Source: a virus
Taxonomy: Duplodnaviria > Caudoviricetes
IMG/VR virus record: IMGVR_UViG_3300033076_000691
Span: 1-64,000 of that record
DNA length: 64,000 nt
Reading direction: 5' to 3' (one strand)
Position 1 is the first letter of the stretch, and every line of letters begins with the position of its first letter. A model generated the notes under the pieces. That model searched no databases and was not told the origin of the DNA. It was given only the letters and a program-made list of their open reading frames with translations. A program made the translations under genes and the position numbers. Shown in pieces: positions 31,945 through 52,040 of this stretch.

Positions 31945-34900
31945 TTATAAATATTCAACTTGTCCTCCGGCTGCTAAGAATTGTTGTAATTCTTCAGGAG
32001 TCATATATACTTCTTCATCTTCTTCATATGGTGCAGTAAACCCTCCGGCTTGCATATAACCACCATATCTACCGATAGCGTAGTTACCATAGGTAGCTCT
32101 ACTACTTCTATCTTGACCTTGCTCAGGAGTTCTATATCCTATATAACTTCCATAATCTACTTGATCTCCTCTATCTTTTTCAGTAGATGAACCCATTAAA
32201 TTATATACATCTGCTGTATCTAAAAGGAAGTTTTTTTCTTTTTTAGCATTTCGGAATCTATCAATACCACCCAAGATACCTCTTGCTCCTGCATTAAATA
32301 CATTTACACCAGCTTCAGGATCAATAGATCTCATTTTTTTCCTTTTATTTTCTACACCTACATATTGATTTGGTGTAGGTGGTTCTTTTTCAGGAATAAT
32401 CTCTTGACCTTGTGCTCCTAAAGTATGTCCGGTATTTGCTGTTTCTGTATATGATCCAGTACCTGTTGCATTAATATAAGCAAAAGGATTTTGATCTTGA
32501 TTGATTGAAGACCCTCTTGGTGATCCAAACAAAGTATTTTCAAATTGAGCATCAGCAGAATGTGGTCCAAATGCAGACATGTCTTGTCCTATACCATTAC
32601 TAAAACCTGTACCTAATTCAAATGGATTAACTCCACCATAACGGTATTCCATTTGAGGGCCACCATATTGCTTTTGATCTTTTACACGTTTTGTAGATTT
32701 ATCTTCATAGTATCTAGAACCCTGTGCCCCAAATCTTACCTTATCTCTGAAACGTCTTGCATCTTCATTTTCAAAAGCATATGTAGTTCTAGCATGTCTT
32801 TTTTCTGCATTAGATAATTCATCCCAATGTTTCTTATTCCATGCATCTTCTTGAAGCTTTGAATCTATATATTCATTTCTACTTACTCTATCAGGTTTTT
32901 CTGAACGTTGTCTTCTTTCTTTTTCAGGATCTACCATCCCTTTAAGTTGAGCAACATCAATAGGATTGTCTCCTGCAACTTTATAAATGTCTAACCATTC
33001 TTTTTCTTTACCAAGTAAACCTTTTTTAGTAACATATCTTGCAGCAACTTCTGGTGGTAATTGACCCATAAAAGCATTCTTAGTACCTAAGTAATAAGGT
33101 TTACCCATTGGTTGTGCATATGATCCCATGTTAGCCATAATAGGATTCCAAGGTAAGAGTGTATTTGCAATTGAACCTTGACCTCTTACTATTCTAGGAA
33201 CATAGTTCACCTGTGCTACTGGAATACAAGCTTTATATTTTTCATTCCAAATAGTACCCGGACCACATTTTGTTTTAGCAGGAGTTTGTAAAAATGGATT
33301 ATCTACAGGTTTACCATAGTTCATATACTCATCAAGACTTTTATTATAAAAATCTTCATACTGTTTGTACTCTGCTTCTCTTTTAGATTTATTATCTTCA
33401 GAAGTAAAGTCACTATACCAGGTATCATAATCTCCTTCTGGATTTGCAGCTTCATAATCTTCTTGATTTGTTTCACCTGCTAACCAATCTTCATATCCTA
33501 ATTTATCTCCTACTACTCTTTTTTCACCAGCTTGGTTCATAATATTGATACCATATTGTGCTTCAGGTAAACCATAAGGTTCATAGTATTCAGATTCATT
33601 ACCACCATAAATAAATCTAGTGAGTGGATTTTTAGAATCCATGTCAACAAAACCACCAATTTCTGCTTGTGGTTGCATTGACATATCATCAGCTAAGTTT
33701 TCTTTATAACCATTTTGCATCAAAAGATTCATGATCTGTGGGTTATACTTAGCATTATCATAGATTTCTCCAGTAAGAGCTTTATTAGAATTATTTTTAA
33801 GAGTATTCTTAAACATATTCTTTTTATTCTCAATAGTGTTAGTTAAGTCATCTGTTCTTTTACCTTTACCAATAGTTTGTTCTTGACCACCTTCTTGAAA
33901 TCTTGCTGTTACAGCTTTAATAAAGTTAGATTTAGATGTACCACCAAATTTAAAATCATCTGCGGGCATCACAATGTTAACATTAGGATTGTTAACACTA
34001 GAGTCTTTATATCTATAATAGTTATATGTTGATGGATAAATTCCTTTTTGAATTAGGAATTGCATACTATCTGGATAAGTTAAGTCTCTTTGATCAATTT
34101 GTTTATTAAACTCAACTCCTGTAGGATCTAGTGTTCTAATAGGTCCTACATCAGTACCACATGGACAGTTGCCATATTTATCTTTTGGTTGATAATTATT
34201 ACCAGATGGGTCTTCACATTGACATTGATTATACAATGAATCCCATGTTTTATAACCAGCATATCCCAGAGCTCCTGCACCAAGTAAAGTATTACGACCT
34301 ATTCTATACTTATAGTTTAATGCATTATTGATATCATTTGCATATGAACCTTCAGCAGCAGGATTAATTACATTAGGACCTAATGCTGGATTTACATATC
34401 CAAATGTAGGTAATTCAACATTTTGAATATTTTTAGCTTTAGTTCTAAATAACTGATTTAAACCTGTAGTAGCATAAGTTTCTAAACCTCTACCAACTTT
34501 ACCTCTATTACTTAATTGTGCATAAGGTGTAGGTGGTTGTTCAGTAATATATGAATATAAACCTTTTAAAGGAGTATTTTTGGGAATATTTAAACCTCCT
34601 GCAAATGGAAACTCTGTTGTGTGAGGAAATGGTGTTACCTGATCTCTTAAAAGTAAATCACCAAAATTCTGTTTTATACCAGAAAGAGCTGGTGGAGTAA
34701 CAATACTTTTTGATTTTACACCTTGTGAAAGAGGATTACCCATTTGGTCAAATACCATTGGGGCACCTGTTTCAGGATCAATATTATAATAGAATCTATT
34801 TTTAAATGTAAGTTCTTTTGCTTTAGATGATGTAGACCCAAATGGTAATTTTTGATTAGGTCCAAACTTATGTGTTATCTCAAAAAATTTATTTCCAGAA

Positions 34901-36147
34901 TCATCTGTACCACCAATAATTTTAGAGTCAAGTGGATAAACCCCACCAAGTAAACCATCTGTTTCAGCTACTGTATTTAAGTCAGATAATTTAAATGATG
35001 ATGCACCTCTGTCCAATTGATTAATAATCTTAAATACATCATCTTGGTATAATTGCAGTCTATCTACACCTAAACTTCCATCACCACCACCGGTAATACT
35101 ACCATTATAACTAAAGACTCCTGGTTTAGGAGTAACATCCCCATGTAAAACTTTCCAAAGCTCATCTCTGTTTTGAGTAAAAGTTGTCTTTAACTGAGGT
35201 GTAAGTTTAGCTCCAACATAAGGTAACTTAGTCATTGCTTGACCTGTCATTGTTGCTAACGGTACCATCTTACGAATAGTACTCAAGTTAGTCATAGGTG
35301 TCAATGCTTTGGTATAACCAGGACCCTGAGTTAATAAGGGATACTGTTTTAATAATCTTGCAAGTACACCACCATCTTGTGCTTGTGGTAAATATTGCTG
35401 TGGTTGAAATGAATCAGATACTGGTCTATAGTCTCCAATGTAATATGAAAGATCAGGAAATGCTTCTTGATTTTGCATACCTGGAGTAATAGCCATCAAG
35501 TCTTCTAGTGAAAATGGTTTTTTATTTTTAAGATTTCCTGCTGTTCCATACTGATCTATTACATTTTTTTGAGTACTGTCAGCTTGATCATTTATAAATT
35601 CTTCATTTTCACCACCATCTTCCATGTAACCACCGTATCTACCAAATGCTTGTTCTTGTTCATCTTGTTCTGTTTCTAGATGACTAGTATCATTATTGGC
35701 AGCTTCTTCTTGATCATAATAACCCTCACTTGAATTTGCTAATTCTTCATCTTCAGCATCATCAGAAGCTCTTTGTTCTTCTTCATCAATTTGTTGTTGA
35801 GTTTGAGGATTGTTATTAGGAGCTTGTTCTTCTTGTTTTTGTACTGCTGATGGATCAAAATAACCTTCTTCAGAAAGTTGAGTAATAGCAGATTGAATAA
35901 TACTCAATGCTGTTGTTTGATCTAATGCATATGATGTAATCAGTTCATTATAAACTAGATCCGGAGTAATTGAGTTCTTTAAAGAAAGATATGCGTTCTC
36001 ATATATCTTATTTAATCTTGCAGGATCTTTACTTACAGAACCAACTTCCATACCCATCTGAGCTTTCTTTAGAAACTTGGCTGTATTATTATAGTATCCT
36101 GGTGTTTCTCCTGGACCTGCTTTTCTTATTCTAACTGATTTCTTCAT
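31945..36147 (-). CDS. Modular putative cargo protein (1400 aa) with many xxGG motifs
   Basis: Long ORF between muzzle and RNAP block. GRYGGYMxxGG occurs twice, with about 14 motif copies in total. Confidence 0.6.
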   Translation of the reverse strand: MKKSVRIRKAGPGETPGYYNNTAKFLKKAQMGMEVGSVSKDPARLNKIYENAYLSLKNSITPDLVYNELITSYALDQTTALSIIQSAITQLSEEGYFDPSAVQKQEEQAPNNNPQTQQQIDEEEQRASDDAEDEELANSSEGYYDQEEAANNDTSHLETEQDEQEQAFGRYGGYMEDGGENEEFINDQADSTQKNVIDQYGTAGNLKNKKPFSLEDLMAITPGMQNQEAFPDLSYYIGDYRPVSDSFQPQQYLPQAQDGGVLARLLKQYPLLTQGPGYTKALTPMTNLSTIRKMVPLATMTGQAMTKLPYVGAKLTPQLKTTFTQNRDELWKVLHGDVTPKPGVFSYNGSITGGGDGSLGVDRLQLYQDDVFKIINQLDRGASSFKLSDLNTVAETDGLLGGVYPLDSKIIGGTDDSGNKFFEITHKFGPNQKLPFGSTSSKAKELTFKNRFYYNIDPETGAPMVFDQMGNPLSQGVKSKSIVTPPALSGIKQNFGDLLLRDQVTPFPHTTEFPFAGGLNIPKNTPLKGLYSYITEQPPTPYAQLSNRGKVGRGLETYATTGLNQLFRTKAKNIQNVELPTFGYVNPALGPNVINPAAEGSYANDINNALNYKYRIGRNTLLGAGALGYAGYKTWDSLYNQCQCEDPSGNNYQPKDKYGNCPCGTDVGPIRTLDPTGVEFNKQIDQRDLTYPDSMQFLIQKGIYPSTYNYYRYKDSSVNNPNVNIVMPADDFKFGGTSKSNFIKAVTARFQEGGQEQTIGKGKRTDDLTNTIENKKNMFKNTLKNNSNKALTGEIYDNAKYNPQIMNLLMQNGYKENLADDMSMQPQAEIGGFVDMDSKNPLTRFIYGGNESEYYEPYGLPEAQYGINIMNQAGEKRVVGDKLGYEDWLAGETNQEDYEAANPEGDYDTWYSDFTSEDNKSKREAEYKQYEDFYNKSLDEYMNYGKPVDNPFLQTPAKTKCGPGTIWNEKYKACIPVAQVNYVPRIVRGQGSIANTLLPWNPIMANMGSYAQPMGKPYYLGTKNAFMGQLPPEVAARYVTKKGLLGKEKEWLDIYKVAGDNPIDVAQLKGMVDPEKERRQRSEKPDRVSRNEYIDSKLQEDAWNKKHWDELSNAEKRHARTTYAFENEDARRFRDKVRFGAQGSRYYEDKSTKRVKDQKQYGGPQMEYRYGGVNPFELGTGFSNGIGQDMSAFGPHSADAQFENTLFGSPRGSSINQDQNPFAYINATGTGSYTETANTGHTLGAQGQEIIPEKEPPTPNQYVGVENKRKKMRSIDPEAGVNVFNAGARGILGGIDRFRNAKKEKNFLLDTADVYNLMGSSTEKDRGDQVDYGSYIGYRTPEQGQDRSSRATYGNYAIGRYGGYMQAGGFTAPYEEDEEVYMTPEELQQFLAAGGQVEYL

Positions 36148-36191: not shown

Positions 36192-36208
36192 TAAACTTAT
36201 AAAGTTTA
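36192..36208. promoter_or_regulatory. Palindromic site TAAACTT-N3-AAGTTTA (copy 2)
   Basis: taaactt-ata-aagttta, overlapping the TAA of the upstream gene exactly as copy 1 does. Confidence 0.5.
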
Positions 36209-39200
36209 TTCATCCTCAACTATATAACCATCTTTAACATACTGGTCTATTTCTTTTTGAGTAAGTTCTAATGCTACTCCTCCATTTTTATGAAGCATAT
36301 AGAAATGTTTATGTAACTGTGTAGCATGTCCTTTTTTAGTCAGATCATCCCATCTCTTTCGTCCTTCTTGAGTATGCATTCCACTTGAAACTAATGGATT
36401 TAAACCTACTTGCTGTAATGAATTTGTTATAGCTTTATTAAACTCACCTGATACTCCAGTACCCATTAGGTTAAATCTATCAGATAAACCAAATGGATAA
36501 TCTCTTTCTTTCATAAATATGAGTTGATCTTCTAATGTAGGAATACCATGTTGTCCTTTATCAAATCTTGTTATACCAATATCTCCCGTCAAATTATTAC
36601 CAACATAAGTAGACATATCTAATCTAAGTAACGGGTTTCCTGATAAATCAAATGAAGATTCTGTTACAGGATTAATTTTAACTTTTAATTGATCGTCAAT
36701 TTTTTTAATACCTAATCCTTTAGCAAGGTTTTCATTAACTAAAGACTCAAACTCTGGAACAGTAACTCTAAGTCCTGGAGATTCCATTAAGTAAATGGCT
36801 GGTTTTGCAGCCTTAGTAAGTTTAGTTCCTGCTTTAACAATTTGTCCAAGACTAGCCTTTTGTAATATTCCACCTTTTTCTTTTATTTGAGTAGAATTTT
36901 TTTGCCAAGGATTAGTTAATAATTCCTCAGCTTTACTGTAAACTTTTTTAACAGGTTCTTCAACATATTCATCAAGATACTCTTGAGGTGCGGTCATACC
37001 CATACCAGCAAGAGCAGCAGCATAAGCAGCAGCATATCCATATCTTTCTAAAAGACTTTGAAGATTACCCCCCATGGTTGCAGGATCAAATTGATCATTT
37101 CTAAGGGCTTCCATATTAACAGGAATATACCTATTAGAAAATGGCAGTCTTCTGTGAAAAGATAAACCAGGATCTGATATAGGAATGCTAGGTTTTATAC
37201 CACCTTGATTATCAGTAATTAAAACTCCATTTCTTTTTGATAAACTTCTATAACCTAAATTAGTTCCCGGAGCCTTAGTATCTAAACGTACCCCAAATAC
37301 TCCCGGATAACTTTCATTTGGATTACCTGGTTCTGCCCAATTTCCTTCTTTTTTAATTTGAGATTTACCCATTCTTAATAAAGGGCCATGTGAAGGATCT
37401 AATTGACCAGTTAATTTTACATAATCTAAACTATCTCCAAATTTTCTAAATGCAGTATTATCTACATACTCAGATAAATCTTTACCATAGAAAGGAAGAT
37501 AATTTAAAGGACTTCCTATAAATGGTCCTAATCCATCATACCCAGCTCCAAAAGTTAAAATTTTTATAGGGTTCATCATTACAGGAGCTAATGTTTTTGC
37601 TAAACTATTAGCTGTTCCAATAGTTCCAACATTTGCTATTCTTCCTAGATTTTTACCAGTTTTAACAATTTGTCCAAGATTAGCTTTTGGTAAAGTACCA
37701 CCTTTACTATATCCTAACAACTTTCTTGCATCAAGTGCATTTTGAGTTTGTTGAGTTGGCATAGTAAAATCTGAAAAGTTTGTATAATTTGTAGGGACAG
37801 ATTTTATACCTTTTGCAAATCTATATGCTGGAAGTGCACTAAGACCTGCCATTGATGCATCCCAGGCTGCTTCCCCATAATTACCTTTATTAAAAGATTC
37901 TTTTGCATCAGCAAGATTTTGATCTAATCCTAGTAATACACTTGCATCAACAAATGGATTGCCCAACATATTTGAAACAACTGGTTTAACAAATCCAGTA
38001 CCTTTTCCAATAGCATTGAGTCCTTTTATTCCTCCATAAGTAGTACCAATATCCCAAAGTTCATTTCCAAGTGCTTCTGTAAACTTTCCTTCATTATACC
38101 CTTCTCTTAAATTCATTCCAATTTTAAATGGATTAAATGCATTTAGAGTTTGATCTAAAACACCTGTAGGTGTCAATTTTGACATAGTTCCTAAATCAGT
38201 ACCAAATTTATCTTCAGCTTTTAATCTATCATCATAGCTTCTATTCCAATCACCCCACATTTCTTCTCTTGGGTTTAATGCATAATATGCAGAATGAAAT
38301 GGATGTTTTAATACATCTTTTACTTTATCTTCTGTAGTTAGTTCTCTATTTGGATCACCTTGTTTTATCTGTTGACCACTGTGTATAATAGCAGCATTGT
38401 ATATGTCTCCTTGTTGTTCCTGTAATAAATCTTGGTAAGTTTTTTTTGAACCAGAAACCTTTTTTCCTAAAATTGATTGAACAGCTGCATTAGGATCAGT
38501 TTGATATAAGTTGATAAAAGAAGATTTTTCTTTATCATTTAATTCTGAAATAGCTTTTTTAAGAACATCTCTTTGAGCTGGTACAACTAAATTACCTAGG
38601 TATTCTGAAACAGCTTTGTTATAATCTTGGTTTTCTGCTGAAGTTCTTTTAGCTTCTGCATCACGTAGAATAACTGCATCCCTAGACAATTGATTGGCAT
38701 TTCTTTGCATTGCCATTTGATCATCTTGAGAATATCTTATATCAGAATTATCAATATCACCATACTTATCCATCCATTCATTAAATGCTTTTTGACCACG
38801 TTCAATTTTATCAGAATGGTATTTTAAATCTGTTTCTGCAGGGTGATATCTTTTTTCCCAAGCAGCTTGAGGATCATTTGAAAAGAATACATCTTGATCT
38901 TTAGCAAGTTTAGAGTTATCAGTTTGCATACTATCTAAACCTTGAGTAATATTACCCAATGCATCGTTTAATATCTTTTGAGTAGGTTGTATAAATTTTT
39001 TTAACTCAGTTTGATTACCTAAAGAACTAGGTAAAGATTTTACAACTTCTGCCGGAGACTTTCCTTCTTCAAGAGCTTTGGTAATAATTTTATTTGTCAC
39101 CGTAGCATCATACTGTTCTTTTGCAGCATCCATTAAAGAACCTAGTTGTTCTTTAACTTGTTTAGGATCCAGCCCCCAATAGTTTTTAAATTGATCTGCT

Positions 39201-39799
39201 TGATAACCATTATTAACAATCCTATTATATGCAAGATCTAAAGGATATAGTTGTGCAAATCCTGTTTCTGAATTTTTATTAATTAAAAATGTTTTTTTTA
39301 ATTCTTCTTCAGTATCTTTAGTTAAATTAGATAAAGGTATAACATCAAATGGTTCAATTTTATCAGACTTCTTTGAAGCATCAAATGTTTTATAATATCC
39401 ACTAACTTTATTATCATAATTTCTTCTCTGTTCTTCTAATAATTTTTGTTGCCCTTCTTCCCGTATACTTTGCATCTTTTGTTCATGTGCAAGTTTTCTA
39501 TCAGACATTTGTTTTTCAAAACCCTTTTGTTCTTCAGCCCATGCAGCACGTAACTCAGATTCAGTTAAACATTGACCATTATAATCATACTTACCTGGAG
39601 GACATTGTTTACCTGTCATTACAGGAGATTGCATCTCATTCCAATATGAAGGTTGTGCTACATTCTCTACTTCAACCATTGGCTGTTCTTGATCAGTAGA
39701 AGACTCATTGTCTTTTCTACCTTTCATTATTTTTGTAGTCTTATTAAATACACCACCATATCTAGCTTGTGGTATGCTTGTAATTCTATACTTTGCCAT
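36206..39799 (-). CDS. Modular putative cargo protein (1197 aa) with C-terminal GNAT-like module
   Basis: Modules separated by KGG-x-L-x-KA-x-LGQIVK linkers (two copies). The last module has MGTGVSGEF...LVSSGMHTQEGRKRWDDL. Confidence 0.6.
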   Translation of the reverse strand: MAKYRITSIPQARYGGVFNKTTKIMKGRKDNESSTDQEQPMVEVENVAQPSYWNEMQSPVMTGKQCPPGKYDYNGQCLTESELRAAWAEEQKGFEKQMSDRKLAHEQKMQSIREEGQQKLLEEQRRNYDNKVSGYYKTFDASKKSDKIEPFDVIPLSNLTKDTEEELKKTFLINKNSETGFAQLYPLDLAYNRIVNNGYQADQFKNYWGLDPKQVKEQLGSLMDAAKEQYDATVTNKIITKALEEGKSPAEVVKSLPSSLGNQTELKKFIQPTQKILNDALGNITQGLDSMQTDNSKLAKDQDVFFSNDPQAAWEKRYHPAETDLKYHSDKIERGQKAFNEWMDKYGDIDNSDIRYSQDDQMAMQRNANQLSRDAVILRDAEAKRTSAENQDYNKAVSEYLGNLVVPAQRDVLKKAISELNDKEKSSFINLYQTDPNAAVQSILGKKVSGSKKTYQDLLQEQQGDIYNAAIIHSGQQIKQGDPNRELTTEDKVKDVLKHPFHSAYYALNPREEMWGDWNRSYDDRLKAEDKFGTDLGTMSKLTPTGVLDQTLNAFNPFKIGMNLREGYNEGKFTEALGNELWDIGTTYGGIKGLNAIGKGTGFVKPVVSNMLGNPFVDASVLLGLDQNLADAKESFNKGNYGEAAWDASMAGLSALPAYRFAKGIKSVPTNYTNFSDFTMPTQQTQNALDARKLLGYSKGGTLPKANLGQIVKTGKNLGRIANVGTIGTANSLAKTLAPVMMNPIKILTFGAGYDGLGPFIGSPLNYLPFYGKDLSEYVDNTAFRKFGDSLDYVKLTGQLDPSHGPLLRMGKSQIKKEGNWAEPGNPNESYPGVFGVRLDTKAPGTNLGYRSLSKRNGVLITDNQGGIKPSIPISDPGLSFHRRLPFSNRYIPVNMEALRNDQFDPATMGGNLQSLLERYGYAAAYAAALAGMGMTAPQEYLDEYVEEPVKKVYSKAEELLTNPWQKNSTQIKEKGGILQKASLGQIVKAGTKLTKAAKPAIYLMESPGLRVTVPEFESLVNENLAKGLGIKKIDDQLKVKINPVTESSFDLSGNPLLRLDMSTYVGNNLTGDIGITRFDKGQHGIPTLEDQLIFMKERDYPFGLSDRFNLMGTGVSGEFNKAITNSLQQVGLNPLVSSGMHTQEGRKRWDDLTKKGHATQLHKHFYMLHKNGGVALELTQKEIDQYVKDGYIVEDE

Positions 39800-39801: not shown

Positions 39802-42800
39802 TTAGATTTTTTCAAATGTATATCCAAGTTTTTCTAATTCTCTCATAGTAGCTTCATCTACTTCATCTCCTAAAGTATAATCAACATTACCACCTTCTTC
39901 CCAGCTATCTAATGTTTTATATGTTTTAGGATCTACAACAAAGTTGTTTTCAATTAAGAATGGTTTACCACCAACTAATTTTAAAGCTTCTACGTTCTGC
40001 AATGGTTTAAAAAATGAACTTGCTGCAATTTGTTTTGCTGCATCTGTTGGATTTAAATAGGCATGTCCTCTTTTTTCCCAAGGATTAAGATCCCAAATAT
40101 CATTTGTTGTAAATTGTAAACCTTGTGGATGATCATTTATATCCCATCCAAATCCACCCATTACACCAAACTGATCATTATCCCAAACTTTACCTGTTGA
40201 AACACCTGAGAATGGTTGTAAATCATTTAATTTTGCATGTCTTGATCTTACCCATGGATTCCATCCAGCAATTCTCATTGCATCTTGTTGTCTCATCCAA
40301 TCATCAAGCTCTTGTTCATTTCCATAATTTGCTTGTCTTTTTATTCTATAATGCTCTCTAGTTAAATCTTCTAAAGGATTATGTCCAAAAGATAAACCCT
40401 GTTCATATCCTGATGCTCTTAAATCATTATACAAATCATTAAAGTAATCCGGACTATATGCAGTATTTAACATGCGGAACTTATTATCTCCAATTTGTTC
40501 TAATGTACCATATTCTTGTGGTAATCCTAAACCAACTGCCCAAGCATCTAATCTTCTTTGACCAATATCATTTAATTTACTTAAAGTAGACTGATCAAAA
40601 ACTTGCATTCTATCTTTATCAGACATTTTTTTAAACTCCTCTAATGGAATTCTTTTTATTTTTAATAATGTTTCAAGATGTGGTTGATGTCCATACTTTA
40701 AAGACATTCCTACTCTAAACGGTCTAGTTTCATTACTAACAGTATTTTTATATAACTCAGTAGGTAATGCTTTTACTTTATCTAAAATAGCATACCCAGC
40801 TGGATTTATTGATTTATATAATCCAGCTCTTCCTAACTTTCCTAATTCTGATAAACCTACCGGTAATCCATTTGCAGCTTTAGGTAAAAAACCACCATTA
40901 GCATATTGTCTTGTTAATCTATAATTTGGTACTTGTATTTCTTTTAAAGAGCTTCCTGGCACATTAAAGACTCTAGCTTGTTCTGTCATTCCTTTTTGCA
41001 ATAACATATCATTAAGTCTTTTGACCATTTCATCAGCAGTTTCTTGTTTTAATGATCTACCCGTACGAATACCTCTAGGAACTTCTAATCCTTCAAATAA
41101 GTTATGATTTACAGACATATAATTTAAAGGTATATGATTTTCATAAGTCATTTGCCAATCAGGTCTTTTACCCATATTAAGCAACATATTATATGAATCT
41201 AAACTTAAACTATATGGTTCTAGAATAGATGGGTTAGGTTTTGTAAATGCTTGATTCATTAACTGAAATGCTCTTCCAGCTTCAATTGAATTTGGCATCT
41301 TAGCAAGGAAATGAAAAGTATTATCATCTACACCTTTAACTTTTGGATTTGGATACAATGTTAAATAACCTGATTGATCTTTATTATAAATATCAAGAGG
41401 AAATGTTACATTAGCTGGAAAATCTGCAGGAATACTTCCTAAAGTTAATTTAGTTGGAGGTACTCTAGGTATTATTGAAGTTGTTCCTCGTACCCAACCT
41501 GATGGTGAAGGTACTTTAGATACTTTTGAAAGTGCATTACCAGCTTTAGTTATCATTCCATAACTAGCTTTAGTAAGTTCAGGAACAGATATATCTTCAA
41601 TAATGTAACCACCTTTAGCATATTCTTGAATCTCTTCTGGTGTAAGGTCTGCTTCAATATAATCTTCTTCAGTTGGTTTACCTTTTAAATAGTTACGGAT
41701 GTCTTTAGCAGCAGCTCTCATTTCAGGAGAGTCATACTTTCTTTCTATTCTATAATCTTTTCTACCCTTTGAAAACATACCAATACTACCTGGAGCAAGT
41801 TGTGCTCTTAACTGACCATCTATATAATTTTCATCAAATCTATCTCTACTTTGAGTGCTACCATTTTTTACTTGTCCTTCATACTCCCAAGTCATATCCT
41901 CACCTCTTGCATCTCTTACAGCTTTTTCAAAGTTTTGTAAAAGAGGTTGGTAGTTTGGATCATCCCGCATACCATGCATCATATCTAAGAATACATCTCC
42001 TCTATTAGCACCTCTTGGATTATATAAAGCAAGATACGTATTTGGTGATGGATTTGGATAAATATATTCAGGACCATTTTCTTCGATAAGATTATCATAT
42101 CTTATTTCAGGATTACCTTCTGGAAATTGAAATTCTATATCTCCGTAACCCACACTTCTAGCATCATAGTTAGGGTCTTTTACAATACTTAAATTCTCCC
42201 CTTCTGCACCATAGACACCCTGCATACCAGGATATCTTTTCATTAATCTTTTCTTGAACTTATCACCTGATTCACCACCATCTTGAAAATACTGAGAGTT
42301 AGGATCATAAATTTTATTTTTTCTAGATTTAGGTTGTGCAAAAAATGGATGCTCAGCAAGTAATCTATTTGTTGCTTCTAAACTTCTAGAGTATGCACGG
42401 GCATTTTTCTTTTTAGGTAACTTAGGAATACTACCACCTTTTTTAAAGTCTTCTGGTTTTTCTAAATCCGGAATACCTGATAGGTTATAATTAGAAGTAA
42501 GTTCCTCATTTGGTTTTATATCTCGTGTTGCAACCATAACAATATGGTCACCATTATCAACCTCTCTTACATTTGGTTCTTCACTATGATTATAATAACC
42601 TAATACAGTAGATGGGAATGGTGCTTGATATAATTCTCCATTTCTATTAAATACTTTTCTAATATGTGATATTCCAATAGGTTCTCCTGCTCTTATAGGT
42701 TCATTTGTAAACAAACCTTTACCTTGAATCTTAGATGGTTTTACACTTACTTGTTTGTAAATAGGAGTATCAACTCCTTCTTTAGCACTAACAAATTCTT

Positions 42801-44196
42801 TTGGTGATTCACCACCTTCTTTTTTAACAACTCCTCCATCTTTATTTCTTGCACCAGATCTATTCATAAGTTGATTATATGCATCAGATCCAGAAAGTTT
42901 ATTTGATGTTTCTTTTTGCCATCTTTCTAATGCAGAATTACGCAGTTTAATAATAACTTGTTTTCTCCAAGCTTCTAATTGTTCTGGTGTAGCATTATTA
43001 ATATCATCAAGTTTTAGTCCAAGTTGACCACGAAATTCACTAGCAATAAGTTTAGGGTCTCCTGTATACAACGGACTGTTAATATCATATGTATCAATAT
43101 ACTCTTTATATGTTCTTGGTAATGTATCTTCTCCTTTTGTTAAACTACTTAAAGAAGATTTATTAAGCATTTTTTTATTTGTAAAAGTTGGATTGTATAA
43201 GCCTTTATTAATTAATGCTTCAGTTTGCTCTGGTGAAAGTATCTTACTTCTAAAGTTTGGCATATAAACTCCAGGAAATAAATTAGAAAATAATTCATCT
43301 CTACTTGTATCTTGATTAAATGCGTTCCACATAGTCGTAGCTGGGTCTTCTGGATACATTTTATCAAATTGATTCCGAGCATTACGGTAATCAATTTCTT
43401 TTTGAAAAAGATTTATAATTTCTTTATCTGTAAAAAAATCTTCTTTTGACGGCATCCATTGAGGACCTGCTAGTTGGTGTAGAGCATTTTGAGATACTTG
43501 CCAACCAGGACTAAAATTTTTAAATTCATAATCTTTACCTTTAATTAAATTGGGATCATATCCATCAAGTTTACCAGAACCGTATAATGAAGAATATGCA
43601 TTTTTTAATCCTTCTTGTCTCCAATTAGGGTCTGTTTCTAATTGCTGAGTTGCTTCATTTAATATATTATAATCTTGTGGATCAATATAATATGCTTCTA
43701 ATCCTGCAGGTAAATAAGGATCTCCACCAAATCGTATTGGAAAGTAACTATCAATTGCAGGATTAGTTAATAAATTTTTAGTATCTTGAGTCATTATAGG
43801 AAACTTAGCAACAACTTTGGGTGCGGTATTTCCTAGTGTTGACATAATGGGTGGTAATCCCATCATTTTACCGGCTGATCCTGAAAATCTAGTAAGACCT
43901 CCCATTGATTTTTTAACCAATGATTTGTTATTTGTTGGAAATTCATCAACATAATCAGCATCTGGAAAATGATAATCTTGACCAGGATACATCATCCGTG
44001 GTTGACCAACATTTGGTTTTGCCATTACAGGATATGGTACTCCCTGCATGGTAATTGTATTAGAAGGGATACGAGTTATTTCTCCTGGATGTGCCCACTG
44101 ACCATTAGGATCTACAATAATATCTTTCTTAGCAGTTGGAGCTTTTGCATTACCAAGTTTTCTAAGAGCATCAATAAGTACTTTTTTATTATGCAT
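39802..44196 (-). CDS. Modular putative cargo protein (1464 aa) containing a SET-domain methyltransferase module
   Basis: SET signatures SKIQGKGLF, NHSEEPN and ATRDIKPNEELTSNY at ~42481-42760, bounded by KKEGG and FKKGG. Confidence 0.75.
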   Translation of the reverse strand: MHNKKVLIDALRKLGNAKAPTAKKDIIVDPNGQWAHPGEITRIPSNTITMQGVPYPVMAKPNVGQPRMMYPGQDYHFPDADYVDEFPTNNKSLVKKSMGGLTRFSGSAGKMMGLPPIMSTLGNTAPKVVAKFPIMTQDTKNLLTNPAIDSYFPIRFGGDPYLPAGLEAYYIDPQDYNILNEATQQLETDPNWRQEGLKNAYSSLYGSGKLDGYDPNLIKGKDYEFKNFSPGWQVSQNALHQLAGPQWMPSKEDFFTDKEIINLFQKEIDYRNARNQFDKMYPEDPATTMWNAFNQDTSRDELFSNLFPGVYMPNFRSKILSPEQTEALINKGLYNPTFTNKKMLNKSSLSSLTKGEDTLPRTYKEYIDTYDINSPLYTGDPKLIASEFRGQLGLKLDDINNATPEQLEAWRKQVIIKLRNSALERWQKETSNKLSGSDAYNQLMNRSGARNKDGGVVKKEGGESPKEFVSAKEGVDTPIYKQVSVKPSKIQGKGLFTNEPIRAGEPIGISHIRKVFNRNGELYQAPFPSTVLGYYNHSEEPNVREVDNGDHIVMVATRDIKPNEELTSNYNLSGIPDLEKPEDFKKGGSIPKLPKKKNARAYSRSLEATNRLLAEHPFFAQPKSRKNKIYDPNSQYFQDGGESGDKFKKRLMKRYPGMQGVYGAEGENLSIVKDPNYDARSVGYGDIEFQFPEGNPEIRYDNLIEENGPEYIYPNPSPNTYLALYNPRGANRGDVFLDMMHGMRDDPNYQPLLQNFEKAVRDARGEDMTWEYEGQVKNGSTQSRDRFDENYIDGQLRAQLAPGSIGMFSKGRKDYRIERKYDSPEMRAAAKDIRNYLKGKPTEEDYIEADLTPEEIQEYAKGGYIIEDISVPELTKASYGMITKAGNALSKVSKVPSPSGWVRGTTSIIPRVPPTKLTLGSIPADFPANVTFPLDIYNKDQSGYLTLYPNPKVKGVDDNTFHFLAKMPNSIEAGRAFQLMNQAFTKPNPSILEPYSLSLDSYNMLLNMGKRPDWQMTYENHIPLNYMSVNHNLFEGLEVPRGIRTGRSLKQETADEMVKRLNDMLLQKGMTEQARVFNVPGSSLKEIQVPNYRLTRQYANGGFLPKAANGLPVGLSELGKLGRAGLYKSINPAGYAILDKVKALPTELYKNTVSNETRPFRVGMSLKYGHQPHLETLLKIKRIPLEEFKKMSDKDRMQVFDQSTLSKLNDIGQRRLDAWAVGLGLPQEYGTLEQIGDNKFRMLNTAYSPDYFNDLYNDLRASGYEQGLSFGHNPLEDLTREHYRIKRQANYGNEQELDDWMRQQDAMRIAGWNPWVRSRHAKLNDLQPFSGVSTGKVWDNDQFGVMGGFGWDINDHPQGLQFTTNDIWDLNPWEKRGHAYLNPTDAAKQIAASSFFKPLQNVEALKLVGGKPFLIENNFVVDPKTYKTLDSWEEGGNVDYTLGDEVDEATMRELEKLGYTFEKI

Positions 44197-47100
44197 TATC
44201 TAGGGGAATACTGATTTTTACTATTGTTCATTTTAAGAATCATGTTTACATTATCACATTGTTTCTTTCTTAATGATACAAAATTAAGGTAGTGTCTGAA
44301 TTTTTTTCTTTGCATTTCAGGCTTACCATAATTCATATTATTAGGATTCAAAATTCTTGTGAATCCATCAGCTGCAGTAATCCATGTATTCTCACTAGAA
44401 TAATTACCAAGAAGAACAGTAGTTCCTGGAACCAATGGTCCTGTAGGAGGATAGTCTGATCCAATAGGAAACTCATCTCTATTTCTTGTTATATCCCAGA
44501 ATTGATTAAATCTATATTTATTTTCTTCTTTAGAGAAAAGTATATCATATGAAAACTGATTAGTACCAAGCTTTGGATACTGCAGTGATAAATTAACATC
44601 ATTCTTTGGATAAAGATTTAAGTTAAGATATCCAGATACTTGTTCTGAGTTATACACTACAGCTTCATCAAAGTTGTAATCAAGAACTTGGTGTTGATCA
44701 ATACAACTATTTCCATTTCTTCTATAACATTCAAGGATATATTCCATTGATCTAGTAGTCATTACTGACTGTCCAGTCATAATTGGAAACTCTATTTCCC
44801 ATCCTCTTTGTATACCATAGAAGTTACAGAATCCATCACAGATATAATTATGTTTCCAAAGCGTATTATTCTTAGTACTTAAGAAAATATCTTTAGTAGG
44901 AATAAGTAAATCCGGATGCCAGTCATGGAAACTTAACCAGTATTGATTTTTAGGGTCATAACTAATTGTCCATGATGCATCATCAAATAAGAATGGATCA
45001 CCTAACATATAAATGTTATTCTGATTATTATCTAGTATAAAATAATCACCTGACCCATCAGAATTGATTCCTATATATTTTACTCTACCTTTATACTCAT
45101 CTTTTAGATAATAGTCTTTTTTAGCAAAATACAATATAGTACTTGAGCTATCATATGTAGCTTGACATCCAATACCCGAAACCGGATTATCTTGATATGG
45201 GTAATTAGGGAAATCATCTGTCAGCCTGTATGGTAAGTATAAGATAAACCACCATTTCATACCAGCTTGAGAAATTTCCTGTAATCCATCTCCATAAGTA
45301 AAGATACGTCCTTGATTTTGAGACATATAGAAAATACCTACAGGTGTTGAAATAACAGCTAATCTATTTTGTGATGAACCAAACTCATATGATTTGTCTG
45401 CATTTGATACAGCTTGTTGTGGCTGTGAAAACAATCCACCATCTCCAATAGTAATCTTAGTATTTAAATCTGTCTCAAGTGTATCTACACCTTGGAACAT
45501 TAAAGGACTTTCATTTTTAAACGTAATGAATATACCTGATTTATTAATTGACTTTACACCAGATATTTGACCTTTAAACTCCTTATAGTTATTTACAAGA
45601 TAAATAAACCAACTATCTTTTGTTGCTTCAAATTGTTGCGGTAATGAATAGATGATCCTATCAGGATAATACGTATAACATAACTTAGCAATTTCAGGAT
45701 TGTAATATCTTGACTGAATACTTCCTGAAGAAAAATATTGATTGAATAGTTTAGAAACACTTAATGAATAGTCATAGATATATTCACTCAATCTTCCCAT
45801 TACATTAGGATTCATATCAAACATAGCAGGTAGATCTGTATATCTATATGGATCATAGTGTTTACCACCTTCTCGTGTGCTTTGTTTTCTAAAGTCAATA
45901 AGAACTTCAGACTCTACAAAGAAATCTCTAACACCAGAATTAGCTAAATAAAAGTACGCATCTCTTACAGAAAACATACCTTCATAAGCTTTACTAAGAT
46001 TTCCTGTACCAATACCTATACCCTCTTTTTGATCAGTAGCGTAGTTATAATATCTTTGAGTAATATTATTATTATTATAGTCTACATAATAATCTAGATT
46101 ATAGAATGCACCTGGTAAAGCTCCTGATCCAGGAACAGAAGGGCTACTTATACTTACAGCTTCTGATAAAAATGTTACATCATATAAAATGCTATTTACA
46201 TTAAATCTACTTTGAGGTATCATGTTATGTAAATAGTAATTGTATTCAAAGCCGTCCGGTTGACCATATAACCAATCATAGTAGAACATCATGTTGTTCT
46301 TCTCTGTATAACGGTTAATATAGGTATCTCCACCAAATAAAATAGGACTTCTTTGTATTACTGTAAAGTAATAAGTTTTACCATCTTTTGGACATGTCCA
46401 TGAAAGTGGTGGATTAGGTATGTTATAGTTAGCTAGTTGTTGCTCACATGGAGTAATTACAATTTGACTTTCACTTCCTAATTGACCATACTGATTTCTT
46501 ACTCTACCTTTTAATCCACCATAGTGACTTGCAATAGTTAAGCTAAAAGGTTTTGTTTTTTCATTTTCTTTAAAGACGGGTAAGTCTGTATTTAAAAATG
46601 CTGGGTCAGATGTATTTTGTGCAATTGTACCTAAGGTAACCAATGACTTATCCTGAACTCCAGAAGTAATTAAATTAGGTCCAATATTTACTCCATCAGA
46701 ATATATAGGATTATAGTATGGTCCTGACTTTGTTCTTACTGTAACTGCATCAGATCTTTTTAAGTTATTGATACTATAAGAATGATAGTTACCTAAATAG
46801 TCTTGATACTTTGTTACTTCTTGAAGATTGTCTCTTATGTAAAAACTATCTTCAATTCTAAATCTATTAAGATAAGTATTAGATAGTTTAGTCATATTAC
46901 TATAGTACCCATGACTTATTTGCTGTAATGCATACTGTCTATAAGGTGTAATAGTATAAAATAACTTAATTGCAATATCTGCACCTTCAGAAAAGTAATA
47001 TGAAATTTGATTAAATGCACCTAGTGTTCTAGATACAGGATCTAAATATGCAAATGAAGGTAATTCAATAGTCCCTCCAAGAGTTAACTTTGGTATTCCA

Positions 47101-49739
47101 GCATTATTTGCATTTGTATTTACTGTAGTAATTAAACTATCAACAGCACCAGCATATGCTGTACCCCCATAACCATTGGCTAACATTGCAAAAACATCTG
47201 CAGCGGCAGTACCTGAACTATAATAAGTATCTAAAAAACTATTAAAAGTACTAACTGCTGCACCAATACGACCTGGAGCACTACTTAATGCAAGATTTTG
47301 TGCACTTGAGTCTTCAATAGTACCACTACCAGAAGCAAATACAATTGGACCTGTACCACCAGGACCTCTATACTGTTCAGTATATGATTGTATTGTTGGT
47401 TGATTAATGATTCTTTTACCAATCATTGAAATAACTGCTTCAGCAAGTCCAGCAACAATAGCAGGTAAAACAGCAAGATTATTTAATAGTTTAAATTTAG
47501 GATGTCCGTTTGGTTCTTGAAATGCTAAGTCAGCATAACCATTCAATGTACCATATACTTTAAACTCTGTAGTTGACAAATACGGAGTTCTAAACATTGT
47601 ATCCGGAGAATGGAATGTAAAAATATCATTTGGTATTGATTGATTAATTACATTATCATCTTTGTCTACATTTTTAATATACGGATCGTTATATAAATAA
47701 TTATGATCTGAAGAAGTATTTGAATACCCAATTGGTTTAATTGTGTTGTATGGATAGTTAGCATAAAGTCCTGTTCTATTTTGAGCTAATGATCCTCTCA
47801 ATTGAAAAGTTCTAAAGTTATTAACCATACCTTTTGCAATAATGGTCTTATTACCTTCTCTTGAACCTCTTAAGATTTCATAACCTACAATGCCGGGAAT
47901 ATCATTACCATCTTGATCTTTAGGTGCAACAATGTTATCAAAGAACACACCCATCAATCTTATGTTATACTGATTACCTGAAGTTGCCGTATTAGTAGTA
48001 GGTCTAAAATGTAAAGCATCTGTGCTATTACTATTAGCAATAAAATTTTCTGGAAACTTATGATGTCTAATATGTTGCCCACAAAGATCATGTGGACCTA
48101 TTGTTTGACCAACAGGAATTTGAGCACCAGGACCAGTCCAACAATACGTGCTTGAATTCCATATATCGGGTCTATCATCAGGATAACTTTCTGTAGATTC
48201 CCAATAACCCATTTCTCCAATAGCCAATAAAACTCCACCATCATCTAATACCCACTTACCAGCATTATTTAATGTTGCTCCAGGTATTGGTGTTAATGTT
48301 GGATACATAAGTTGAGTTGCTGTGTTATAAACTTCAAATACTTTATCATCTGTAGATAAAGAATTTTTATCATTTATATCATCTGCTTCAAATACCGGTG
48401 TTCCATTTGGAAGAATAAAAGTTTTAGGTGCTCTTCCTGGAATATGATACGATGATGATTTATCTCCTGTATTATAAACCCATCTAATAAAAAAAGTATA
48501 AACTTCATCTCTTAGATAGTTTGTTTTGTTACCACCTTTCATGTAGTAATCAGCAGGATATTCAACACTTGCCCATCTTGTTTGAATAAGATTTGCTAAT
48601 GGTTGATAGTTAAAATCAAATTTAGATCTTGGACCTACTCTAAGTAAATAACTATTTACTTCTGTTATTTGATCTGATGTTTCAAATACAGGAGTTGTAA
48701 TAGGAAGCTGCTCAAGAGGAATTTTAACAAGACTTGGATTAATCTGATCAATAGCAATTTTTGTAGTCTTAGTTGAATAAAATCCTATTTGATTTGCAAC
48801 AGTCTGTTGATTTACAGCCTGGACAATAACTAATACAAACTCATCAAAGTTTACTGAATCAGCACTAACATCTAATGTTAATGAACCTTCTAAATCATTA
48901 GCTGAATATACAAACTGATAGTTACTTTGTGAAAAGTAATCTGTTACTTTTTGTCCTTTTATTGTATAAGCAATAAGTGCAAAGTATGTACCATTAGCTA
49001 GAGTACCTCCGGATTGTCCTAATGTTAAATTAAGACAAGGTGTTTCCATTAATCTTGCTAATCTTGTTGCTTCACAATTTAATGAATTAATAAATTCTAC
49101 AGTACTACATAAAACCTGATTTGGTTTTTCATTCCATACTACACCAGGCCACAATAAATTTGTAATTGTTCCGTTACTATAATAGTTCATAGTAGACGGT
49201 CCTCCACCTATCCATGTATAATCTAAACTTGGCCAAGTATTTGGATCACCAATATTAATATATCTATCAGGATTAAATCCATCTGCCCAATATACTTGCC
49301 AAGAACAATCTTCTTTTTCTCTTGCTGAACCAGAAATAAGATATCTTTTATCAAAGTTTAAACAAGGATCCTGAACTATTTCTCTATATCTACAAACATC
49401 TTCTTCTAATAAACCTATCTCAGATGTAATTCGTTTACCCAAAGAGTTATGTCCTGCAGTAAAGATTAGCCATTTATCTGAATATAAATAAATAGCACCA
49501 ATAATATATTTTTGTGTAACAGTAGAAGGCATAGTAGCTCCTGCAGTACCACATAAAATATTTGATGTTTCATTTGACAATGTACCAACATCTCCTTCAA
49601 TGGTGTTATTTACAACATTGATTGCATGAGTCCACATTCCTTCAGATACGAATGAAGGATCGGAGTCTTTATTTAATCCTTTTGTAAAAGAATTAGTAAT
49701 AGTCTGAGAAGTATCTTGCGGAGATTGTTTCTTTGCCAT
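44196..49739 (-). CDS. Tail muzzle / tail stabilization protein (crAss-like)
   Basis: N-terminal SFTKGLNKD motif, beta-rich composition, C-terminal WTISYD...WLSFHDW motif, position after the ring protein genes. Start moved to MAKKQ (49739) to avoid overlap with the upstream gene ending at 49744. Confidence 0.75.
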   Translation of the reverse strand: MAKKQSPQDTSQTITNSFTKGLNKDSDPSFVSEGMWTHAINVVNNTIEGDVGTLSNETSNILCGTAGATMPSTVTQKYIIGAIYLYSDKWLIFTAGHNSLGKRITSEIGLLEEDVCRYREIVQDPCLNFDKRYLISGSAREKEDCSWQVYWADGFNPDRYINIGDPNTWPSLDYTWIGGGPSTMNYYSNGTITNLLWPGVVWNEKPNQVLCSTVEFINSLNCEATRLARLMETPCLNLTLGQSGGTLANGTYFALIAYTIKGQKVTDYFSQSNYQFVYSANDLEGSLTLDVSADSVNFDEFVLVIVQAVNQQTVANQIGFYSTKTTKIAIDQINPSLVKIPLEQLPITTPVFETSDQITEVNSYLLRVGPRSKFDFNYQPLANLIQTRWASVEYPADYYMKGGNKTNYLRDEVYTFFIRWVYNTGDKSSSYHIPGRAPKTFILPNGTPVFEADDINDKNSLSTDDKVFEVYNTATQLMYPTLTPIPGATLNNAGKWVLDDGGVLLAIGEMGYWESTESYPDDRPDIWNSSTYCWTGPGAQIPVGQTIGPHDLCGQHIRHHKFPENFIANSNSTDALHFRPTTNTATSGNQYNIRLMGVFFDNIVAPKDQDGNDIPGIVGYEILRGSREGNKTIIAKGMVNNFRTFQLRGSLAQNRTGLYANYPYNTIKPIGYSNTSSDHNYLYNDPYIKNVDKDDNVINQSIPNDIFTFHSPDTMFRTPYLSTTEFKVYGTLNGYADLAFQEPNGHPKFKLLNNLAVLPAIVAGLAEAVISMIGKRIINQPTIQSYTEQYRGPGGTGPIVFASGSGTIEDSSAQNLALSSAPGRIGAAVSTFNSFLDTYYSSGTAAADVFAMLANGYGGTAYAGAVDSLITTVNTNANNAGIPKLTLGGTIELPSFAYLDPVSRTLGAFNQISYYFSEGADIAIKLFYTITPYRQYALQQISHGYYSNMTKLSNTYLNRFRIEDSFYIRDNLQEVTKYQDYLGNYHSYSINNLKRSDAVTVRTKSGPYYNPIYSDGVNIGPNLITSGVQDKSLVTLGTIAQNTSDPAFLNTDLPVFKENEKTKPFSLTIASHYGGLKGRVRNQYGQLGSESQIVITPCEQQLANYNIPNPPLSWTCPKDGKTYYFTVIQRSPILFGGDTYINRYTEKNNMMFYYDWLYGQPDGFEYNYYLHNMIPQSRFNVNSILYDVTFLSEAVSISSPSVPGSGALPGAFYNLDYYVDYNNNNITQRYYNYATDQKEGIGIGTGNLSKAYEGMFSVRDAYFYLANSGVRDFFVESEVLIDFRKQSTREGGKHYDPYRYTDLPAMFDMNPNVMGRLSEYIYDYSLSVSKLFNQYFSSGSIQSRYYNPEIAKLCYTYYPDRIIYSLPQQFEATKDSWFIYLVNNYKEFKGQISGVKSINKSGIFITFKNESPLMFQGVDTLETDLNTKITIGDGGLFSQPQQAVSNADKSYEFGSSQNRLAVISTPVGIFYMSQNQGRIFTYGDGLQEISQAGMKWWFILYLPYRLTDDFPNYPYQDNPVSGIGCQATYDSSSTILYFAKKDYYLKDEYKGRVKYIGINSDGSGDYFILDNNQNNIYMLGDPFLFDDASWTISYDPKNQYWLSFHDWHPDLLIPTKDIFLSTKNNTLWKHNYICDGFCNFYGIQRGWEIEFPIMTGQSVMTTRSMEYILECYRRNGNSCIDQHQVLDYNFDEAVVYNSEQVSGYLNLNLYPKNDVNLSLQYPKLGTNQFSYDILFSKEENKYRFNQFWDITRNRDEFPIGSDYPPTGPLVPGTTVLLGNYSSENTWITAADGFTRILNPNNMNYGKPEMQRKKFRHYLNFVSLRKKQCDNVNMILKMNNSKNQYSPR

Positions 49740-49743
49740 AATC

Positions 49744-50799
49744 TTAAATAACTCTATTACCCATACTTCCTCTATAGTATGGGTTATTTGGTGAATGACT
49801 TTCAAACATATAGTAGTACTTACCGTACTGTGCTTTTCTATTTGCCCACCAAAGTTGTTCCATCTCTTTAAAGTTTGGAGTATTAACCAAACTTAATGCA
49901 TTGTTTCTTGCAGCCTTTAATCTTTGTTCAAGTAACTGCATTCTTTGAGCAACATCTTCACCATTGAGATAAAGATTTTCCATTATCCTTGATTTCAATG
50001 CATATTCATAATACTCATTGAGTAAGTCATGATCTGGAACAAGTAAGTTATCATCATCATCAACAAGTTCACCTTGGTAGTTTAAATATACTTTACCAGT
50101 ATCAAATGTTGTAAACAAGAAGCCACCTTTTATCCAACCTTGATTTGGTGTATTATAATAAAGATTAGGGCAGTCACATTCTATTTCTTGACTAGCCTTC
50201 ATTCTTAATGGAGTTAAGACAGAATAAGTTCTTGTTACTCCAGTATTTAATACTTGAATAAGTTCCCACTTTTCTCCTTTACAATTAACAAATACTCTTG
50301 GCTTAATACAAGTATCACCATAGGGTGCTAAAGGATCATATGCATCAGGAATAACCGTTGGTGTACAAGTTGTAGGGCAGGTGTGATCTGGACATGCTGC
50401 AGTATGATTACATGGGTTAGCATTACATACTCTGCAGTTAACTGTTTCCGGTGCACATATATCTACAGTACTAGGTACTTCGGAATATGGTACTTCTTGA
50501 ATATTGGTTCCAGATGCATAACCATCATAACCAACACTTTCTGTATAGTGACCACATATAAAAGCGTAGTTAAATGTATAGAAATCATCTGGTAGTTTTA
50601 CTTTACCATGACAAACATCTAATACAACTTCCTTTGTTTGATTGATTCTTAAACCTAAATCATAGTTAATTTTTTTTACTAACTTAATTAACTGTTGAGG
50701 TTCAATCATGTTCTCTAAAGCAAAAGTATTTAGATCAACAGTAACATCTTCCAATAACTGGTCAAACGTTCTATATTTTAAAGTATAATTAAAGTCCAT
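49744..50799 (-). CDS. Tail ring / tubular protein with Cys-rich insertion
   Basis: GKVKLPDDF and GKVYLNYQG...LLVPD motifs and position directly upstream of the muzzle. Internal CRVCNANPCNHTAACPDHTCPTTC segment. Confidence 0.6.
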   Translation of the reverse strand: MDFNYTLKYRTFDQLLEDVTVDLNTFALENMIEPQQLIKLVKKINYDLGLRINQTKEVVLDVCHGKVKLPDDFYTFNYAFICGHYTESVGYDGYASGTNIQEVPYSEVPSTVDICAPETVNCRVCNANPCNHTAACPDHTCPTTCTPTVIPDAYDPLAPYGDTCIKPRVFVNCKGEKWELIQVLNTGVTRTYSVLTPLRMKASQEIECDCPNLYYNTPNQGWIKGGFLFTTFDTGKVYLNYQGELVDDDDNLLVPDHDLLNEYYEYALKSRIMENLYLNGEDVAQRMQLLEQRLKAARNNALSLVNTPNFKEMEQLWWANRKAQYGKYYYMFESHSPNNPYYRGSMGNRVI

Positions 50800-52039: not shown

Positions 52040-52040
52040 A

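Follow-up and report, generated by a model that had tools for sequence, protein, structure and literature searches.

We analysed a 64,000-nt stretch of viral DNA (Duplodnaviria; Caudoviricetes), which comprises positions 1 to 64,000 of IMG/VR record IMGVR_UViG_3300033076_000691 and is called the window here, and in which an uninterrupted open reading frame (ORF) of 1464 amino acids (aa) directly follows a crAss-type muzzle gene and carries a SET domain. The first-pass annotation had placed at 42433-42846 a SET-domain methyltransferase, embedded as a cassette in a phage virion-module protein. Translation of this interval on the minus strand gives 138 residues, equivalent to aa 451-588 of the ORF, and the three SET signatures and the GG brackets on which the call was based are all present in it: NKDGG (residues 1-5), KKEGG (8-12), SKIQGKGLF (38-46), YYNHSEEPN (84-92), ATRDIKPNEELTSNY (106-120) and FKKGG (134-138). 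The protein, its modules up to the connector that follows the SET domain, and the key positions for binding of S-adenosylmethionine (SAM) and for catalysis are located as follows:

39802..44196, minus strand: modular post-muzzle protein (P0002), 1464 aa, carrying the SET cassette; no cysteine, no predicted transmembrane (TM) helix.
44122..44196, minus strand: N-terminal leader, aa 1-25, MHNKKVLIDALRKLG..., common to 64/130 long SET-bearing relatives.
43903..44121, minus strand: 'DPNGQWAHPG' N-domain, aa 26-98, ending KKSMGG; 52-74% identity in relatives, in some of which it lies mid-protein.
42811..43902, minus strand: module of about 360 aa with no assigned family, aa 99-462, ending NKDGG..KKEGG; absent in L002-type relatives and in P0004.
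42433..42810, minus strand: SET cassette, aa 463-588, with a pre-SET flank, a trimmed core and a post-SET segment ending PEDFKKGG.
42484..42720, minus strand: Pfam SET match, aa 493-571, 79 residues over 104 model positions.
42715..42723, minus strand: GxG SAM-binding motif, G492 and G494, in 155/155 related domains.
42664..42666, minus strand: His511, kept in 153/155 domains and aligned by HMMER with the Tyr of 'YMF' in MLL1.
42583..42591, minus strand: NHS motif, N536, H537 and S538, with N and H in 155/155 domains; the Cys after the motif is Glu here.
42487..42489, minus strand: Tyr570 of ELTSNY, the catalytic Tyr position, in 154/155 domains.
42274..42432, minus strand: Lys/Arg-rich connector ('tail'), aa 589-641, with SRSLEATN and KPKSRKNK, ending YFQDGG; predicted disordered.

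The two checks proposed together with the original call, a HMMER comparison with Pfam SET and a structure model, both bore out the SET domain. Pfam SET (PF00856, curated cut-off 22.4 bits) matched the whole 1464-aa protein at aa 493-571 with 43.5 bits (E 4.7e-11) and the 138-residue piece alone with 51.1 bits (E 2.1e-13), which is far beyond chance, and a search of the whole 103.8-kb record gave a single PF00856 site, at the same place (42.9 bits). An AlphaFold2 model of the piece, built on an alignment of the piece and 21 short homologues, had a β-core with a predicted local distance difference test score (pLDDT) of about 90. When this model was compared with the PDB using Foldseek, 282 matches were obtained at E≤1e-3, and all matches listed were SET or PR domains, among them MLL4, EZH2, MLL1 and vSET, while VIA-align gave Z-scores of 12.7 for EZH2, 11.4 for MLL1 and 10.6 for vSET (root mean square deviation 2.7 Å over 88 residues). 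The profile of the phage family matched the MLL1 SET domain at E 3e-15 and vSET (1N3J) at E 7.7e-9; the HMMER alignment pairs GKGLF with GRGLF of MLL1, YYNHSEEPN with FINHSCEPN and EELTSNY with EELTYDY, which puts Tyr570 in place as the catalytic Tyr, and the SAM-binding motifs lie at positions 492-494 (GKG) and 534-538 (YYNHS).

Conservation was assessed on 155 SET domains from the 150 best cluster representatives (clusters ≤50% identical to each other), collected by an exhaustive phmmer search over 1.84 billion proteins that gave 603 matches at E≤1e-3, 86 of them at E≤1e-10. GxG and NH are invariant (155/155), the catalytic Tyr is retained in 154/155 domains, as is the Glu of ELxxxY, and the post-SET Phe in 125/125, and the Phe/Tyr-switch position (S568 here) is occupied by a small residue in every domain; outside the SAM-contact and catalytic residues the phage domains drift to 35-50% identity. 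The canonical NHSC cysteine is replaced by Glu in the domain studied here, and the family is nearly free of cysteine (15 Cys in 15,062 residues). The SET domain is thus under strong purifying selection, and since the SAM-contact and catalytic residues are invariant and the Phe/Tyr-switch residue is always small, the pattern fits an enzyme rather than a scaffold. We conclude that aa 463-588 form a genuine, minimal and probably active SET-type SAM-dependent protein-lysine methyltransferase.

The core of this putative enzyme is trimmed, with approximately 25 of the 105 Pfam SET positions absent, including the EYxG strand and SET-I; their absence shows in the GEPI strand running straight into the strand that HMMER matched to 'IGSSYMFRI' of MLL1, and the two matched blocks are some 48 residues apart in MLL1 but some 20 profile positions apart in the phage family. 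His511 occupies the place of the 'YMF' Tyr. In total 85 positions of the family profile align to 103 residues of vSET, so that the phage core falls short of vSET by about 18 residues, although PMC7019647 describes vSET as the smallest histone methyltransferase. Like the phage domain, vSET (A612L of Paramecium bursaria chlorella virus 1, PBCV-1; PDB 1N3J, 3KMA) is a minimal viral SET domain without pre- and post-SET Cys clusters, and it is a precedent for delivery in the virion, as PBCV-1 packages it and its action on the host begins as soon as the virus has entered (PMC7019647). The two differ in that vSET is a free 119-aa protein which methylates H3K27 of a eukaryotic host, whereas the phage SET domain is a module of a 1464-aa protein, and histones are not expected in the bacterium presumed to be its host.

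Stand-alone trimmed-SET ORFs of 95-125 aa were found in many other viral contigs, and they also occur in the cultured phages Cyanophage P-RSM6, Prochlorococcus phage P-SSM7, Pelagibacter phage Kolga and Pseudoalteromonas phage PH1, where the genes encode 99-102 aa and are all annotated as 'hypothetical protein'. Two of these were above the Pfam SET cut-off, namely PSSM7_204 of P-SSM7 (L073, 4001-4300) and gp27 of Kolga (L072, 4986-5294). The stand-alone phage proteins have the same trimmed architecture and are 33-45% identical, but they are free 99-102-aa proteins from non-structural regions and fall into tree clades apart from the cargo-borne copies; PSSM7_204, for instance, adjoins nrdA/nrdB and talC rather than structural genes. 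Automatic names of the type 'SET domain-containing protein' are present in BFVD on entries from uncultured viruses, one of 971 aa, so databases have already flagged the domain, and a full-text literature search, with subscription journals outside its coverage, returned no paper on SET domains in crAss-like or other phages. No close relatives of the phage SET domain were found in cellular genomes in a pattern scan of 185,579 species genomes, and among 14 control genomes PF00856 gave matches in Methanosarcina only.

The 1464-aa protein consists of the SET domain and at least five other modules, with junctions at aa 98/99, 462/463, 588/589, 641/642, 862, 1101 and 1436. Modules end in the motif aromatic-x-x-G-G (FKKGG, YFQDGG, YAKGG, YANGG and WEEGG), of which there are five in the SET-bearing ORF versus 0-2 in each neighbouring giant ORF, and module gain and loss in relatives falls exactly on the GG junctions. 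The order in the window is N-domain (ending KKSMGG), the ~360-aa module (KKEGG), SET (FKKGG) and tail (YFQDGG), while in P0004 the N-domain (YKDGG) is followed directly by SET (FKKGG) and tail, and in the L002-type relatives (QMKKGG) directly by the tail. The locus L074, in which the C-terminal region of the muzzle protein is 83% identical to that of the window, has the leader (FKRGG) followed by the tail and lacks SET. The SET domain is therefore a true cassette, bounded by xxGG and inserted or missing exactly at these junctions, as the first-pass annotation had claimed. Direct repeats of 17 nt coincide with some of the junctions, and the pair that brackets SET and tail, encoding (E/D)GGES, is located as follows:

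42805..42821: copy 1 of the 17-nt direct repeat, on the upstream border of the SET cassette (codons K459-S464, KEGGES).
42268..42284: copy 2 of the repeat, 16/17 identical with copy 1.

Another such pair (40890-40906 and 41607-41623, at least 16/17 identical) lies on two YA(K/N)GG junctions, and altogether three 17-nt pairs at ≥16/17 identity were observed in the gene versus 0.2-0.3 expected from shuffled sequences. Repeats at junctions could supply microhomology for the exchange of modules.

The frequency of the cassette was determined in two sets of relatives. Searching IMG/VR with the whole protein gave 18 relatives with muzzle proteins 24-62% identical to that of the window, none of which (0/18) has SET, and in which aa 1-98 and patches beyond aa 584 are the common parts of the post-muzzle protein. 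The second search was anchored on the C-terminus of the muzzle protein and gave 68 loci with at least 1.5 kb of downstream sequence, of which 18 have SET, always in the post-muzzle ORF; the nearest clade has it in 12/14 loci, SET presence being confounded with phylogeny among the relatives. Within 130 long matches the SET domain is found after the leader or another short N-terminal stretch (70), at the very N-terminus (40) or internally (20), the leader being of the MYNKKVLIDAL type and about 20 aa long. The usual place is thus that of the first module, whereas the SET domain of the window is internal, behind the extra ~360-aa module, and a tree of 182 SET domains requires at least nine changes between first and internal position. 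Four metagenomic proteins (P0025, P0030, P0032 and P0036) carry two copies from different tree clades, one at residue 1 and the other at approximately residues 110-430, which may mean two specificities. The near relative L020 has a post-muzzle gene (6893-8269) for a 458-aa protein consisting of SET, tail and Phage_lysozyme, and aa 141-359 of the window protein are found there at the C-terminal end of the next gene (8247-14060, 1938 aa), hence modules also cross gene borders.

With regard to the remainder of the protein, searches with aa 99-450 of the ESM Atlas gave only unnamed viral clusters with scores of at most 0.84, and the whole protein had no match in 50,697 phage records (tblastn, E≤1e-5). 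The only match in PHROGs was an unnamed family over the SET domain, and the weak phmmer matches in the PDB (E≤1) were nearly all in the SET region, together with one chance-level match to a peptide deformylase. The connector has 21% Lys+Arg and also occurs in SET-less relatives; it was considered as a docked post-SET segment or pseudosubstrate and rejected, as it is disordered in the AlphaFold2 model (pLDDT <50) and is also found without SET. Pfam searches of the record for C48, C39 and S78 peptidases that might act on GG junctions gave no match. A motif search detected HExxH in two neighbouring ORFs and not in the SET-bearing protein: YHEAWHG at 15453-15467 (aa 841-845 of a 3384-aa ORF) and LHEFSHP at 7211-7225 (aa 203-207 of a 1975-aa ORF), neither with a Pfam match. 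These two motifs recall the zincin-like peptidase hub of polyvalent proteins and of N4-type virion RNA polymerase (RNAP) proteins.

The gene for the SET-bearing protein is tightly packed between its neighbours, and its ATG overlaps the stop codon of the muzzle gene (TAATG):

44196..49805, minus strand: crAss-type muzzle protein, 1869 aa, directly upstream.
36206..39799, minus strand: next cargo-block gene, 1197 aa, starting 2 nt past the stop of the SET-bearing ORF.

Upstream genes match the Pfam families CrAss_Ring_2, CrAss_Ring_1 and crAss_MUZ, and seven giant ORFs of 1064-3384 aa follow downstream. The gene is flanked by the muzzle gene on one side and by some 42 kb of giant genes, most of them poor in Cys, on the other, which is where crAss phages have their cargo/RNAP block. 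This muzzle to post-muzzle synteny is kept in 18 + 80 related loci. There is no Cys among the 1464 residues of the SET-bearing protein and 0.04-0.06% in the three largest ORFs, compared with 3-8% in the Cys-rich ORFs at 49.7-58.1 kb, which are probably external structural proteins. The structural ORFs at 49744-58132 reach 54 Cys (8.5%) in the 638-aa protein encoded at 54091-56007, and the cargo-block proteins have 0-0.2% Cys except for the ORFs at 28643-31936 (1.1%) and 31945-36147 (0.4%). A LysM peptidoglycan-binding domain (Pfam, 34.6 bits) is encoded at 2765-2881, aa 1651-1689, near the C-terminus of the 1975-aa cargo-block ORF. The major head protein (62602-63822) had its best match in the 50,697 phage records in Leptolyngbya phage Lbo-JY46 at just 28% identity, which sets the phage far apart from any relative in culture.

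The assignment to a virion module was upheld by this gene order, as the SET-bearing ORF immediately follows the crAss muzzle gene, where PhiCrAss001 encodes its cargo protein C1 (gp45). According to PMC10172136, mass spectrometry detects gp45 of this Bacteroides phage in the virions, where its N-terminal part occupies the tail barrel, and the proposed model has it ejected first, from N to C and partly unfolded. Both genes head the cargo/RNAP block immediately behind the muzzle gene and share its strand, but gp45 is a 90.8-kDa protein with a predicted TM helix, whereas the protein described here is estimated from its 1464 aa at about 165 kDa and has none. No sequence similarity between the two was detected (tblastn, phmmer), and the passages of that paper considered here mention no enzyme domain for gp45, whereas the protein described here consists of swappable modules. 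The cargo assignment consequently rests on gene position, Cys content and the modules of relatives, since neither similarity to gp45 nor a TM helix was found; the relatives L002 and L008 have Phage_lysozyme and Amidase_2 modules in the same protein. The synteny, the zero Cys content and these lysozyme/amidase modules suggest that the protein is probably packaged and injected.

The protein also resembles the polyvalent proteins (Iyer et al. 2017, PMC5512222), which are large multi-domain proteins encoded near packaging or structural genes, combine host-modifying enzymes with lysozymes, and are predicted to deliver enzymes together with the phage DNA. As in those proteins, several unrelated domains are combined next to structural genes, and relatives have SET with lysozyme or lysozyme with amidase. 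The text of the polyvalent paper contains neither 'lysine' nor 'protein methyl', the passages considered here show no SET domain, and the GG-junction syntax is not part of its description.

Taken together, we read the SET domain as a GG-delimited, exchangeable unit of a cargo protein that is made of several modules ('polyvalent') and encoded by an uncultured crAss-like phage, and on balance we favour, with some reserve, a SAM-dependent lysine methyltransferase module that enters the host as part of a cargo protein ejected at infection. The SET-bearing protein would be made late and stored in the virion like gp45 of PhiCrAss001, and at infection it would be extruded partly unfolded through the tail, after which the SET module would refold in the host cell and, as takeover proceeds, methylate one or more lysines of a host protein or of a phage protein delivered alongside. 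The SAM for this would come from the host, as no phage SAM synthetase was found in the record. Action in the cytoplasm is suggested by the free SET genes in cultured phages, with the P-SSM7 copy beside nrdAB/talC, and because homologues are found in phages of cyanobacteria, SAR11 and gammaproteobacteria, the target would be either a widely conserved host protein or phage-borne. A more specific version, which we consider possible yet doubtful, is that of a GG-delimited delivery polyprotein, from which a SET enzyme of about 125 aa, smaller than any other known SET type and possibly released at the GG junctions, would be in the bacterial cytoplasm seconds after adsorption and would methylate a conserved host protein of the nucleoid, transcription or translation as part of takeover or anti-defence.

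Phage-borne substrates were also considered. The first-pass annotation had named small Lys-rich proteins and an HU-like protein of the window as possible targets. The small proteins do exist, as four ORFs at 59358-60975 on the minus strand encode proteins of 81-166 aa with 14-20% Lys, one of them DUF6321, and three of the four have Y/F/M-x-K-G-G motifs like those at the cargo junctions; they could be internal virion proteins and possible substrates. Nothing links them to SET. The HU-like protein was not recovered: no HU motif was found in the window, a 150-aa ORF at 58197-58649 is DUF5856, and an HU-like target in the window was rejected because the sole Bac_DNA_binding match is weak and lies outside it. 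This match (HU/IHF, 14.6 bits, below the cut-off) is in a 136-aa frame at 72361-72531 of the record (L153), and the record contains no other HU-like candidate. SET enzymes of prokaryotes that act on Lys-rich DNA-binding proteins are known, cpnSET methylating Hc1 and Methanosarcina Go1-SET methylating MC1-alpha in cells without nucleosomes (PMC3980110), but these are cellular stand-alone proteins, unlike the viral SET domain described here, which is fused into a virion-module protein.

Several observations weigh against delivery of an active methyltransferase into the host. The EYxG strand, which is the source of a channel Tyr in SET7/9-type enzymes, is absent as is SET-I, and the domain may need a partner or a dimer to complete its lysine channel. 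SET is dispensable, being absent in 50/68 muzzle-anchored relatives, and the records of ten SET-less relatives, two of them 98-99% complete, have no SET domain anywhere. The SET-bearing protein did not match the gp45 chain in the PDB (phmmer, E≤1) and lacks an N-terminal TM helix as in gp45, with a highest 19-residue Kyte-Doolittle mean of 0.75, while the lysozyme and amidase modules of relatives suggest the periplasm, a compartment that lacks SAM. The loss of the EYxG strand and SET-I would also suit a pseudo-enzyme, with the SET fold retained for scaffolding or binding and not for catalysis, and eukaryotes are known to have SET and PR domains without activity; this is hardly probable, however, as the SAM-contact and catalytic residues are invariant over 155 divergent copies that otherwise show the 35-50% identity given above.

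Two further explanations were weighed. SET might act in the producing rather than the newly infected cell, on lysines of the phage's own virion proteins before these are packaged or while they are, for instance altering charge, DNA binding or protease resistance, with the four Lys-rich proteins or the Lys-rich GG connectors of the cargo proteins as candidates. SAM is certainly available in the producer cytoplasm, the four window proteins with 14-20% Lys share the aromatic-x-K-G-G motifs, the disordered connector with 21% Lys+Arg comes right after SET, and cpnSET/Hc1 and Go1-SET/MC1-alpha are precedents for action on a cell's own chromatin (PMC3980110). We nevertheless consider this unlikely, as the connector and the small basic proteins occur independently of SET, the connector directly following the leader or N-domain in SET-less relatives, as the stand-alone phage SET proteins are encoded in genomes of the myo-, podo- and siphovirus types, whose virions differ greatly, and as the structure model shows no docking of the tail onto SET. 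The protein could alternatively be a late protein that is non-virion or tail-associated and is not ejected, with SET acting in the cytoplasm after expression like the stand-alone phage SET proteins. The lack of detectable gp45 homology and of a TM helix is in agreement with this, as is the expression of the stand-alone homologues from non-structural regions. The gene, however, overlaps the muzzle stop codon and lies between the muzzle gene and the ~42 kb giant Cys-poor block, and relatives fuse peptidoglycan hydrolases, sensible only at entry, to the same scaffold, which makes a late protein that is not ejected quite improbable. An ejected cargo protein carrying a SET methyltransferase into the host thus remains the reading that we prefer.

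The best-known modifications that phages impose on host proteins are ADP-ribosylation (T4 Alt/Mod), phosphorylation and acetylation, and SET-type lysine methylation was not among the phage-imposed host modifications in the searchable literature. Minimal viral SET domains and polyvalent or cargo effectors of phages are kinds of protein that were already known, of which the trimmed SET domain described here, an internal xxGG cassette of a post-muzzle protein, is a variant. If SET is active, host takeover by crAss-like phages, and by the cyanophages and pelagiphages that have a free copy, would gain a new chemistry, and catalytic cores of about 95 residues would be the shortest SET cores known, which bears on the minimum needs of the fold. 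If the doubtful delivery-polyprotein version is true, it would be a prokaryotic counterpart of vSET and the first case of a bacterial virus delivering a protein-lysine methyltransferase with its virion, and the free homologues would have the same task in cyanophages and pelagiphages. The stand-alone homologues in cultured phages make the SET question testable, and with an active SET domain the clean xxGG junctions would illustrate the exchange of effector modules within a putatively injected protein.

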